From NCBI RefSeq assembly GCF_057098645.1, contig NZ_CM169472.1: a stretch of 64,000 bases of DNA, one strand, 5' to 3'. A program made the position numbers. Below are positions 31,401 through 34,400 of the stretch, piece by piece. The stretch's first letter is position 1, and every line of letters starts with the position of its first letter.

Positions 31401-34400
31401 TTTCACATGTCGCACCAATCGATTGTTTAATTCAAAAATTACAACAGCGCCTGCGTGATTGCGATATTAAGCATCTGACCGATGTGCTGGAAATAGATAA
31501 AGATATGCGTGCGCTTATGCAGCGGATCGAAAATGGCGTCGCTTTCGAAAAATATTATCTGGGTGCCCAGCCTATTTTTCATTGTCTGAAAAGTTTGAAT
31601 GATTTAGTGCGACTGGCGAAGGCGCTGGACGTCGATTTTCCTTTTTCTGCTTACGCCGCCATTGAGCATATTCCCGTGATTGAAGTGGAGTTTGTCCATC
31701 TGGCGGGGCTGGAGAGTTATCCCGGTCAGTTGACGTTACTGGATACCCCCGGGCCAAATGAAGCCGGGCAACCGCATCTGCAAAAAATGCTTAACCAGCA
31801 GCTGGCTCGCGCCTCGGCGGTACTGGCGGTGCTGGATTATACGCAACTGAAATCGATCTCCGATGAAGAGGTCCGTGAGGCGATTTTGGCGGTGGGGCAA
31901 TCGGTGCCGCTGTATGTGCTGGTCAATAAGTTCGATCAACAGGATCGTAACAGTGACGACGCCGACCAGGTGCGGGCACTGATTTCCGGGACGCTGATGA
32001 AAGGCTGTATTACGCCACAGCAGATATTTCCGGTGTCGTCGATGTGGGGCTACCTGGCAAATCGGGCGCGCCATGAGTTAGCCAACAACGGTAAGTTACC
32101 ACCGCCAGAGCAACAACGCTGGGTGGAAGATTTTGCCCATGCCGCGCTCGGCAGGCGCTGGCGTCATGCCGATCTGGCGGACCTCGAACATATTCGTCAT
32201 GCTGCCGATCAGTTGTGGGAAGATTCGCTGTTCGCCCAGCCAATTCAGATGTTGCTTCATGCCGCTTACGCTAACGCCTCGTTGTATGCTCTGCGATCTG
32301 CCGCGCATAAACTGTTGAATTACGCGCAGCAGGCGCGGGAATTCCTGGATTTTCGTGCGCACGGGTTAAACGTCGCTTGTGAACAATTGCGGCAAAATAT
32401 CCATCAGGTCGAAGAAAGTTTGCAGCTATTGCAACTCAATCAGGCGCAGGTGAGCGGCGAGATTAAACATGAAATCGAGCTGGCCCTGACCTCCGCCAAC
32501 CACTTTCTGCGTCAACAGCAAGATGCGCTGAAGGCGCAGTTAGCCGCCTTGTTTCAGGATGATTCGGAGCCGTTAAGCGAGATTCGTACCCGCTGTGAGA
32601 CACTGTTACAGACGGCGCAGAACACCATCAGTCGCGACTTTACGCTGCGTTTTGCCGAGCTTGAATCCACTCTTTGCCGGGTGTTAACCGATGTTATTCG
32701 CCCCATTGAACAACAAGTCAAAATGGAATTGAGCGAGTCAGGGTTTCGTCCTGGGTTTCATTTTCCTGTTTTTCACGGCGCAGTTCCCCACTTCAACACT
32801 CGCCAGCTGTTCAGTGAAGTCATTTCGCGCCAGGATGCAACGGACGAGCAGAGCACGCGTTTAGGCGTTGTGCGTGAGACTTTTTCGCGCTGGTTGAATC
32901 AGCCTGACTGGGGACGGGGAAATGAGAAATCCCCGACAGAAACGGTTGATTACAGTGTGTTGCAACGAGCATTAAGCGCAGAAGTCGATCTCTATTGCCA
33001 ACAAATGGCTAAAGTTCTGGCAGAGCAGGTCGATGAATCTGTTACGGCAGGCATGAATACTTTTTTCGCTGAGTTCGCTTCATGTTTGACGGAATTACAG
33101 ACGCGTTTACGCGAAAGTCTGGCTCTGCGTCAACAAAATGAATCGGTGGTCAGGCTGATGCAGCAGCAATTGCAGCAGACTGTGATGACTCACGGCTGGA
33201 TTTACACCGACGCCCAGCTGTTACGCGATGATATTCAAACACTTTTCACGGCAGAACGATATTGACCAAGACGTTACTTGACGGCCCCGGTCGCGTGCTG
33301 GAGTCGGTTTATCCCCGCTTTTTAGTGGATCTGGCGCAGGGCGATGATGCCCGCCTTCCACAAGCCCATCAGCAGCAGTTTCGTGAACGACTGATGCAGG
33401 AACTTCTTGCGCGCGTGCAGCTTCAGACATGGACGAACGGCGGCATGTTAAATGCGCCGCTTAGCCTGCGTCTGACATTGGTGGAAAAACTGGCGTCGAT
33501 GCTGGATCCCGGTCATCTGGCGCTGACGCAGATCGCGCAACATCTGGCGCTGTTACAAAAAATGGATCACCGCCAGCACTCTGCTTTCCCGGAGCTCCCT
33601 CAGCAAATTGCCGCCTTGTATGAGTGGTTTTCAGCCCGTTGTCGCTGGAAGGAAAAGGCGTTAACGCAACGAGGCCTACTGGTGCAGGCGGGTGAACAGA
33701 GCGAGCAAATTTTTACCCGCTGGCGTGCTGGGGCGTATAACGCCTAGTCGTTGCCTGGGCGCTGTTTTATCGTTCTCGAAGAGTTGCGTTGGGGGGCATT
33801 TGGCGATGCCTGTCGTCTGGGAAGCCCGCAAGCGGTGGCGTTGTTGCTGGGTGATTTGCGCGTGAAAGCGACACAACATCTGGCAGAGAGTATCAATGCG
33901 GCCCCGACCACGCGTCACTATTACCATCAGTGGTTTGCCTCTTCGACCGTTCTGACGGGCGGGGATCATGCTGATTTTTTAAGTTGGCTGGGAAAGTGGA
34001 CCACGGCAGATAAACAACCCGTTTGCTGGTCAGTGACCCAACGCTGGCAAACTGTCGCGCTGGGGATGCCACGACTCTGTTCAGCGCAGCGTCTGGCGGG
34101 GGCAATGCTCGAGGAAATCTTCTCTGTAAATTTGGTGTAAATAATCAGTTACATCAATGAGTCCTAAACGAAATTCATGTGTGAAGTTGATCACAAATTT
34201 AAACGCTGGTAGGGTAAAAAGGTCATTAACTGCCCAATTCAGGCGTCAACTGGTTTGATTGTACATTCCTTAACCGGAGGGTGTAAGCAAACCCGCTACG
34301 CTTGTTACAGAGATTGCATCCTGCAATTCCCGCTCCCCTTTTGCGGCCGTCGCGCTGATTTTTCTGGCGTTTGCGGAAATGGGCCAACTCTGCGAGGAAA

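Follow-up and report, generated by a model that had tools for sequence, protein, structure and literature searches.

A nonsense mutation at a former Dcm site in rdcB of an Escherichia coli O145:H28 sub-lineage

We analyzed rdcB (also called yjcZ) in a 64,000-nucleotide stretch of Escherichia coli DNA (NCBI RefSeq assembly GCF_057098645.1, contig NZ_CM169472.1), which we refer to as the window and number from its first letter. The gene carries an amber codon, TAG, at codon 162, where its relatives have the tryptophan codon TGG. Taking the evidence together, we consider it very likely that this stop is a real, vertically inherited G-to-A nonsense mutation of an O145:H28 sub-lineage, that it lies in a former Dcm site, and that it has made rdcB a pseudogene whose function is lost.

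Results

A single in-frame stop interrupts rdcB

The rdcB frame (33262..34140, plus strand) translates into 293 codons including the terminal stop, or 292 without it, and its sole internal stop is codon 162, a premature TAG at 33745..33747 on the plus strand. A first-pass annotation of the window had described two open reading frames (ORFs), 33262..33747 and 33751..34140, that share one frame, are separated by this single TAG, and together give the 292 codons of intact YjcZ. The ORF listing bore this out, and all of the coordinates and counts proved correct: the annotated rdcB genes of O145 strain RM9872 and of K-12 are 879 bp long, start with TTG, and encode 292 amino acids, the same length as the window frame. 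The N-terminal remnant ORF (33262..33747, plus strand) has the TTG start and encodes 161 amino acids, the expected truncated product. The C-terminal remnant ORF (33751..34140, plus strand) has 129 codons, counted from a TTG at codon 164.

Comparison with relatives identified the causal change. The window rdcB matches that of RM9872 at 878 of 879 nucleotides and that of K-12 at 858 of 879, with no insertions or deletions (indels) relative to either. The sole difference from RM9872 is a single-nucleotide polymorphism (SNP), G to A, at nucleotide 485 of the gene (33746, plus strand). Alignment gave TGG (Trp) as the ancestral codon, which K-12 and the nearest complete genomes have; codon 162 is TGG rather than a stop in RM9872, in K-12, and in three public contigs, L028, L029, and L031. 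The gene is flanked by crfC and proP, which is the conserved crfC-rdcB-proP context, and both halves of the split gene matched the Pfam YjcZ family (PF13990). Judged by these sequence comparisons, the window rdcB is a full-length, collinear, and syntenic orthologue of the YjcZ family and a nonsense-mutation pseudogene, with one in-frame stop and no frameshift or rearrangement.

The stop is inherited within an O145:H28 sub-clade

With a 63-nucleotide query that had the TAG at its center, the locus was recovered from 5,407 complete-genome E. coli records, but none of them matched exactly, each having at least one mismatch. A 61-nucleotide query bearing TGA at the same codon likewise gave no exact match among complete E. 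coli genomes. Intact rdcB is therefore the norm in E. coli. The exact 161-amino-acid product (P0001) was already present in the public protein collection, where the cluster table lists it on 42 contigs and the locus index in 70 blocks.

The window belongs to the O145:H28 lineage and, across its 64,000 bases, shows 14 substitutions relative to strain RM12761, the G-to-A change at 33746 among them, and no indels. One scaffold from ENA (L003) matches the window without a mismatch over 6,486 bp and has both the TAG and the SNPs at 30852 and 32240 that are specific to the window. Using the CrfC variant of the window (P402/R589) as a lineage marker, we read 24 contigs; 12 have the 161-amino-acid rdcB, and the other 12, L028, L029, and L031 among them, have an intact rdcB with TGG. 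An NCBI assembly representative of the truncated set (L030) has the TAG and differs by one SNP in 6,229 bp. Because independent assemblies carry the TAG on the same haplotype and sister genomes keep TGG, we concluded that the stop is a real mutation, inherited within an O145:H28 sub-clade.

The first-pass annotation had offered a strain-specific nonsense mutation, a sequencing error, and read-through in an amber-suppressor background as explanations for the stop. The first of these is supported by the TGG codon in K-12 and the closest genomes, by the lack of TAG or TGA in ~5,400 complete genomes, and by inheritance within the sub-clade; in the survey across E. coli, the TAG was present in 0 of 5,407 complete-genome records but was found in independent O145:H28 assemblies. 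The second, an error of sequencing or assembly in the source genome with TGG as the true codon, has next to no chance of being right. Although the codon is in a Dcm motif beside a short hairpin, a type of context that produces basecalling errors and C-to-T read variants (PMC8565308), and although the allele is in no complete RefSeq E. coli genome, both allele and haplotype recur in independent assemblies from ENA (L003) and NCBI (L030) and in similar contigs, including at least 12 contigs of the same CrfC variant. Moreover, comparison with RM12761, the nearest complete genome, showed a change at just 1 of the window's 169 CCWGG sites, namely, that in rdcB, and there is therefore no systematic error at the methylation motif. 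These findings effectively exclude the error. We likewise rejected a genome-wide basecalling artefact at Dcm motifs, since a single site was changed and independent assemblies have the allele.

The truncated product would lack the most conserved part of RdcB

In intact RdcB, the YjcZ domain (PF13990) spans residues 21 to 287, and the N-terminal remnant covers positions 1 to 146 of the 272 in the profile. We aligned 28 homologues with 53 to 91% identity from Escherichia, Citrobacter, Enterobacter, Kosakonia, and other genera. W162 is invariant in all 28, and 47 of the 79 invariant columns are at or after residue 162. Translation would end after residue 161, deleting 131 of the 292 residues (45%), W162 included, and the product would be without the most conserved blocks, WS..GRC...LEELRWG.FGDACRL and WSVTQ.WQ..ALGMPRLCSA.

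An AlphaFold (AF2) model of RdcB is a single all-helical body (mean predicted local distance difference test score [pLDDT], 67; predicted template modeling score [pTM], 0.70), in which residue 162 is in a loop preceding confident helices at residues 164 to 176, 179 to 186, and 189 to 210. A sequence search of the PDB detected no relatives of RdcB, Foldseek returned no significant match (best E value, 1.3), and an NCBIfam search gave no match. Because the missing residues include the invariant W162, 47 of the 79 invariant positions, and the confident helices, alignment and model point to loss of RdcB function as the most likely outcome.

Residues 224 to 271 of RdcB are highly conserved and are modeled with low confidence; this may be a partner-dependent segment, perhaps one that binds RdcA. 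Separately, a few public proteins of 438 to 475 amino acids (P0084 to P0086 and P0067) join a dynamin-N domain (PF00350) to YjcZ (PF13990) or are over-long; their appearance suggests fusion of crfC to rdcB or mis-calling in some assemblies.

The mutated base is in a former Dcm site

The ancestral context of the codon, GCCTGGTCG (GCC-TGG-TCG), contains the Dcm site CCTGG, which is now CCTAG (33743..33747). The change is a G:C-to-A:T transition at the inner C:G pair, and in the motif scan the mutated G is the one that pairs with the inner C of CCAGG on the bottom strand, the base that Dcm methylates. Deamination of 5-methylcytosine to thymine at CCWGG, escaping very-short-patch repair, would give exactly a G:C-to-A:T change at 33746. 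Such deamination is the mechanism of the classical lacI amber hotspots (PMC12606429), and very-short-patch repair by Vsr normally counteracts it (PMC2715241); CCWGG is a recognized hotspot in whole-genome mutation data (PMC13250602). The motif scan found two Dcm sites in rdcB, with four possible 5-methylcytosine deaminations, and only that at G485 gives a stop. The second site, an intact CCTGG at 33754..33758 (gene nucleotides 493 to 497), could yield missense changes only. Since the sole stop-creating Dcm position in rdcB is the one that mutated, we lean, by a small degree, toward deamination at the Dcm site as the origin of the G-to-A change.

Two potential hairpins are associated with the codon. 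A perfect 5-bp inverted repeat, GGCGT-ATA-ACGCC (33732..33744, plus strand), was read from the sequence directly 5′ of it. Quasi-palindrome templating from this hairpin, assessed by eye, was rejected because it would at best predict G486A, and the observed change is G485A. The two Dcm sites together form a terminator-like hairpin (33741..33761, plus strand) with a 7-pair stem and a CTGTTTTATC tail, in which the mutation turns a G·U pair into A-U; hairpins of this terminator-like type are not above the number expected from shuffled sequence.

The expression signals of rdcB are intact

The partner gene crfC (rdcA, yjdA; 31037..33265, plus strand) is intact, and its TGA stop overlaps the TTG start of rdcB by 4 nucleotides (TTGA, 33262-33265). 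Cotranscription of yjcZ with the dynamin-like crfC, as proposed in the first-pass annotation, fits this overlap of plus-strand ORFs and needs one refinement, in that a FliA (sigma-28) promoter within crfC also drives yjcZ (PMC4183435). In the window, this promoter is intact and matches the published site exactly (33010..33037, plus strand). With both the overlap and the promoter preserved, transcription and translation initiation should be normal. The downstream gene, proP, starts 264 bp after the rdcB stop; because rdcB ends its unit, no polar effect on proP is expected.

Stops at codon 162 and elsewhere in rdcB have arisen in other lineages

The public protein collection also contains other 161-amino-acid products, on differing amino acid backgrounds. 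Among the DNA sequences, six different rdcB haplotypes, counting that of the window, have TAG as codon 162, and at least two others have TGA; two backgrounds seen on broken contigs may be further TGA events. The TGA codon (G486A, equivalent to window position 33747) was seen in L004, L006, L008, and L009, which represent other E. coli backgrounds. L006 shares its rdcB background with two TAG carriers, L005 and L007, and both stops have thus arisen on one haplotype.

A further set of contigs from Logan, each ~3.5 kb long and from different runs (L012, L013, and L015 to L019), end exactly at rdcB nucleotides 483 to 485. Such ends are typical of a bubble in the assembly graph, with TGG and stop alleles mixed within one sample. 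The mixture could consist of real sub-populations or of library-level deamination of 5-methylcytosine. In vitro deamination also produces C-to-T read variants at CCWGG (PMC8565308), which tempers the reading of these breaks as heterogeneity of the cultures; the fixed, inherited allele is unaffected. An insertion sequence (IS) behind these contig ends was rejected, since the ends are rdcB sequence without foreign bases and resemble a SNP bubble. The other boundary shared by many public contigs, ~3,010 bp upstream of rdcB, is explained by palindromic repeats at 30200-30290, between yjdN and yjdM, that resemble repetitive extragenic palindromes (REP) or bacterial interspersed mosaic elements (BIME).

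Exact look-ups on the same allele background recovered truncations at many other codons: W224* on 190 contigs, Q142* on 57, W154* on 25, W129* on 18, W122* on 13, R137* on 11, Q146* on 9, and W177* on 1. Among the nonsense-capable codons looked up in this way, only W57* had no record. Thus, 9 of 10 nonsense-compatible fragment lengths are on record, and 9 of 10 lengths that no single-base nonsense mutation could produce are absent, which led us to reject the idea that the fragments are random products of contig ends. The same counts exclude W162 as a uniquely targeted codon, as several other truncations (Q142*, W154*, W129*, and W224*) are recorded at similar or higher numbers. The one nonsense-impossible length on record is 150 amino acids. 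Fragments of this length, on 10 to 12 Logan contigs, end at a run of five T's (33710-33714, rdcB codons 150 and 151), which suggests an indel or homopolymer polymorphism.

One of these truncations belongs to the same serotype as the window. O145:H28 strain 16003 (L023; NZ_AP024924.1, locus 501-1379) has an independent rdcB stop, C424T, which changes CAG (Gln142) to TAG at the equivalent of window position 33685. The Prokaryotic Genome Annotation Pipeline (PGAP) labels the gene a pseudogene with an "internal stop," and the exact 141-amino-acid product is the one found on 57 contigs. Like W162*, Q142* is a lone in-frame stop in a syntenic and otherwise intact gene, is confined to a clade, and has intact sisters. 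In contrast to G485A, C424T is at a CAG that is not a Dcm site, and it occurred in another sub-lineage. Literature searches, one of them poorly specified, found nothing relevant on recurrent rdcB or yjcZ mutations.

Dcm-site stops are as common or commoner in cadB, melR, and dcuR

As controls, we counted matched Dcm-site ambers in neighboring, dispensable genes. W142* of cadB (62600-63934), W106* of melR (44622-45530), and Q135* of dcuR (53218-53937), all on the minus strand, had 137, 151, and 260 index blocks, respectively, compared with 70 for rdcB W162*. The corresponding amber in adiA (W157*) had 1 block, and that in melA (W158*) had none. We therefore rejected the view that rdcB is unusually rich in Dcm-site ambers. 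In so large a collection, dispensable genes in general show rare, recurrent nonsense alleles, and rdcB is unexceptional.

The control genes also allowed Dcm and non-Dcm nonsense alleles to be compared within a gene. In dcuR, Q135* (260 index blocks) exceeded the non-Dcm Q131* (52 blocks), and in melR, W106* (151 blocks) exceeded the non-Dcm W138* (51 blocks). Dcm-site stops were thus 3 to 5 times commoner, in a comparison of two gene pairs that is confounded by clonal expansion. The counts in cadB, melR, and dcuR, which run from 137 to 260 blocks in the public collection, look like the footprint of a Dcm hotspot on the scale of populations.

Outside this region, the segment between yjcS and yjdP (8790-17934) encodes a response regulator, a sugar kinase, an aldolase, a lyxose/mannose isomerase, an ATP-binding cassette (ABC) sugar transporter, and a hybrid histidine kinase. 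It is followed by a pseudogene fragment of a GCN5-related N-acetyltransferase (GNAT) at 18075-18278, as annotated in RM12761.

Discussion

The expected consequences of the mutation follow from work on K-12. RdcA (YjdA/CrfC) and RdcB are both required to activate DgcE, deletion of rdcB phenocopies that of dgcE for CsgD, curli, and cyclic di-GMP (c-di-GMP), and yjcZ mutations suppress the pdeH mutant's defect in motility (PMC6510439). Transposon hits in rdcB lower c-di-GMP in a genome-wide sensor screen (PMC13031359). Loss of RdcB would accordingly weaken DgcE activation, lower c-di-GMP, and reduce curli and cellulose, and it should also weaken the c-di-GMP brake on motility. The suggestion in the first-pass annotation that loss of yjcZ may have a phenotype can be refined in this sense: a phenotype is expected through the role of RdcA and RdcB in the DgcE/c-di-GMP pathway (PMC6510439) and not through a clamp-binding role.

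The same gene is disrupted in the K-12 knockout and transposon alleles (PMC6510439; PMC13031359) and in the window, and the expected effects are alike, with less DgcE activation and c-di-GMP, less CsgD, curli, and phosphoethanolamine (pEtN) cellulose, and suppression of the pdeH motility defect. The K-12 alleles are engineered deletions or insertions, whereas the O145:H28 allele is a natural point mutation in a Shiga toxin-producing E. coli (STEC), leaves a 161-amino-acid fragment, and is known from sequence.

The lacI amber hotspots at Dcm (CCWGG) sites were reportedly described by Coulondre, Miller, Farabaugh and Gilbert in 1978 and are reviewed in PMC12606429. The rdcB mutation resembles them in being a G:C-to-A:T change at the inner-C pair of CCWGG that creates an amber codon, and the W162 amber has recurred independently in several lineages. 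It differs in that the rdcB codon is TGG within CC-TGG, with the C that Dcm methylates on the non-coding strand, whereas the lacI codon is CAG within C-CAG-G. In addition, the adjacent unmethylated position at W162, which gives TGA, has mutated nearly as often.

This last difference is among the observations that weigh against our interpretation. TGA at codon 162, arising from G486A at the unmethylated position, is found in at least two and up to four backgrounds, compared with at least six for TAG, and recurrence at W162 can therefore be explained without a Dcm hotspot. Non-Dcm stops in rdcB are also as common, as the counts for Q142* (57 contigs) and W224* (190 contigs) indicate. With regard to the phenotype, deletion of yjcZ alone left motility unchanged in a wild-type background (PMC4183435), so that any visible effect may be subtle and limited to matrix production. 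The rest of the pathway, with dgcE, pdeR, dgcM, mlrA, csgD, and rpoS, is encoded outside the window, as are dcm and vsr.

A separate matter is whether the loss of rdcB was adaptive, with selection favoring nonsense mutations time after time, whether in the host, the environment, or laboratory culture, because lower c-di-GMP from DgcE favors motility or growth over matrix, and with the W162* clade as one instance. This proposal concerns selection and is compatible with our explanation of the stop itself, but we consider it improbable. It would account for the independent codon-162 stops, both TAG and TGA, in several backgrounds, for a second nonsense mutation in O145:H28 (Q142* of strain 16003), and for the presence on record of nearly all nonsense-compatible truncation lengths, compared with 1 of 10 nonsense-impossible ones. 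The Logan contigs that end at nucleotides 483 to 485, as expected for polymorphism at codon 162 within samples, and the suppression of the pdeH motility defect by yjcZ mutations (PMC6510439) also agree with it. However, the matched Dcm-site ambers of cadB, melR, and dcuR outnumber that of rdcB, and no special selection need therefore be invoked. Furthermore, rdcB is intact in essentially all complete genomes, and the contig breaks could partly reflect in vitro deamination of 5-methylcytosine in the libraries (PMC8565308). The stronger form of the proposal, in which rdcB is a repeatedly selected target and both STEC O145:H28 (W162* and Q142*) and other lineages have shut off the RdcA/RdcB input to DgcE, appears slightly less probable still. 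If it were true, the Dcm-site amber at W162 would be the most mutable "off switch" and would also be polymorphic among sub-populations of sequenced cultures.

It is very doubtful that a suppressor tRNA or leaky termination lets ribosomes pass the UAG, so that full-length RdcB is made and the gene remains functional. This was the third explanation in the first-pass annotation, and we found no evidence that supports it. No tRNA genes were found in the 64-kb window; suppressor loci such as glnV and glnX lie outside. The stop is a derived state, limited to one sub-clade, with TGG in its relatives, and the pattern in other lineages, with TGA at the same codon or stops elsewhere, such as the Q142* pseudogene of strain 16003, is that of plain inactivation. 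Because W162 is invariant, insertion of Gln by a supE-type suppressor would in any case yield a W162Q protein, and any other amino acid but Trp would likewise alter that position. A T after a stop codon favors efficient termination, and T is the base that follows the TAG at 33745-33747.

Barely credible is a split protein, in which reinitiation at the TTG of codon 164 (33751), in frame and 4 nucleotides past the stop, would supply a 129-amino-acid half to reassemble with the 161-amino-acid half: both halves do score as parts of the YjcZ domain, but the 20 nucleotides upstream of the TTG (GGGCGTATAACGCCTAGTCG) contain no Shine-Dalgarno-like sequence, for which reason the C-terminal ORF is probably untranslated, the break removes the invariant W162 as well as S163, the model is one all-helical body rather than two domains, and all 28 of the diverse homologues are single chains of ~290 to 300 amino acids.

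The W162* allele of rdcB is, then, an ordinary inactivating mutation, and alleles of this kind turn up repeatedly, at low frequency, in many dispensable E. coli genes. It represents a textbook natural instance of a Dcm-site amber mutation and involves no new mechanism. For the biology of STEC O145:H28, W162* marks a sub-clade that probably lacks the RdcA/RdcB input to DgcE, and the SNP may be useful as a marker of the lineage. Members of this sub-clade may show less curli and cellulose matrix and altered persistence or motility.

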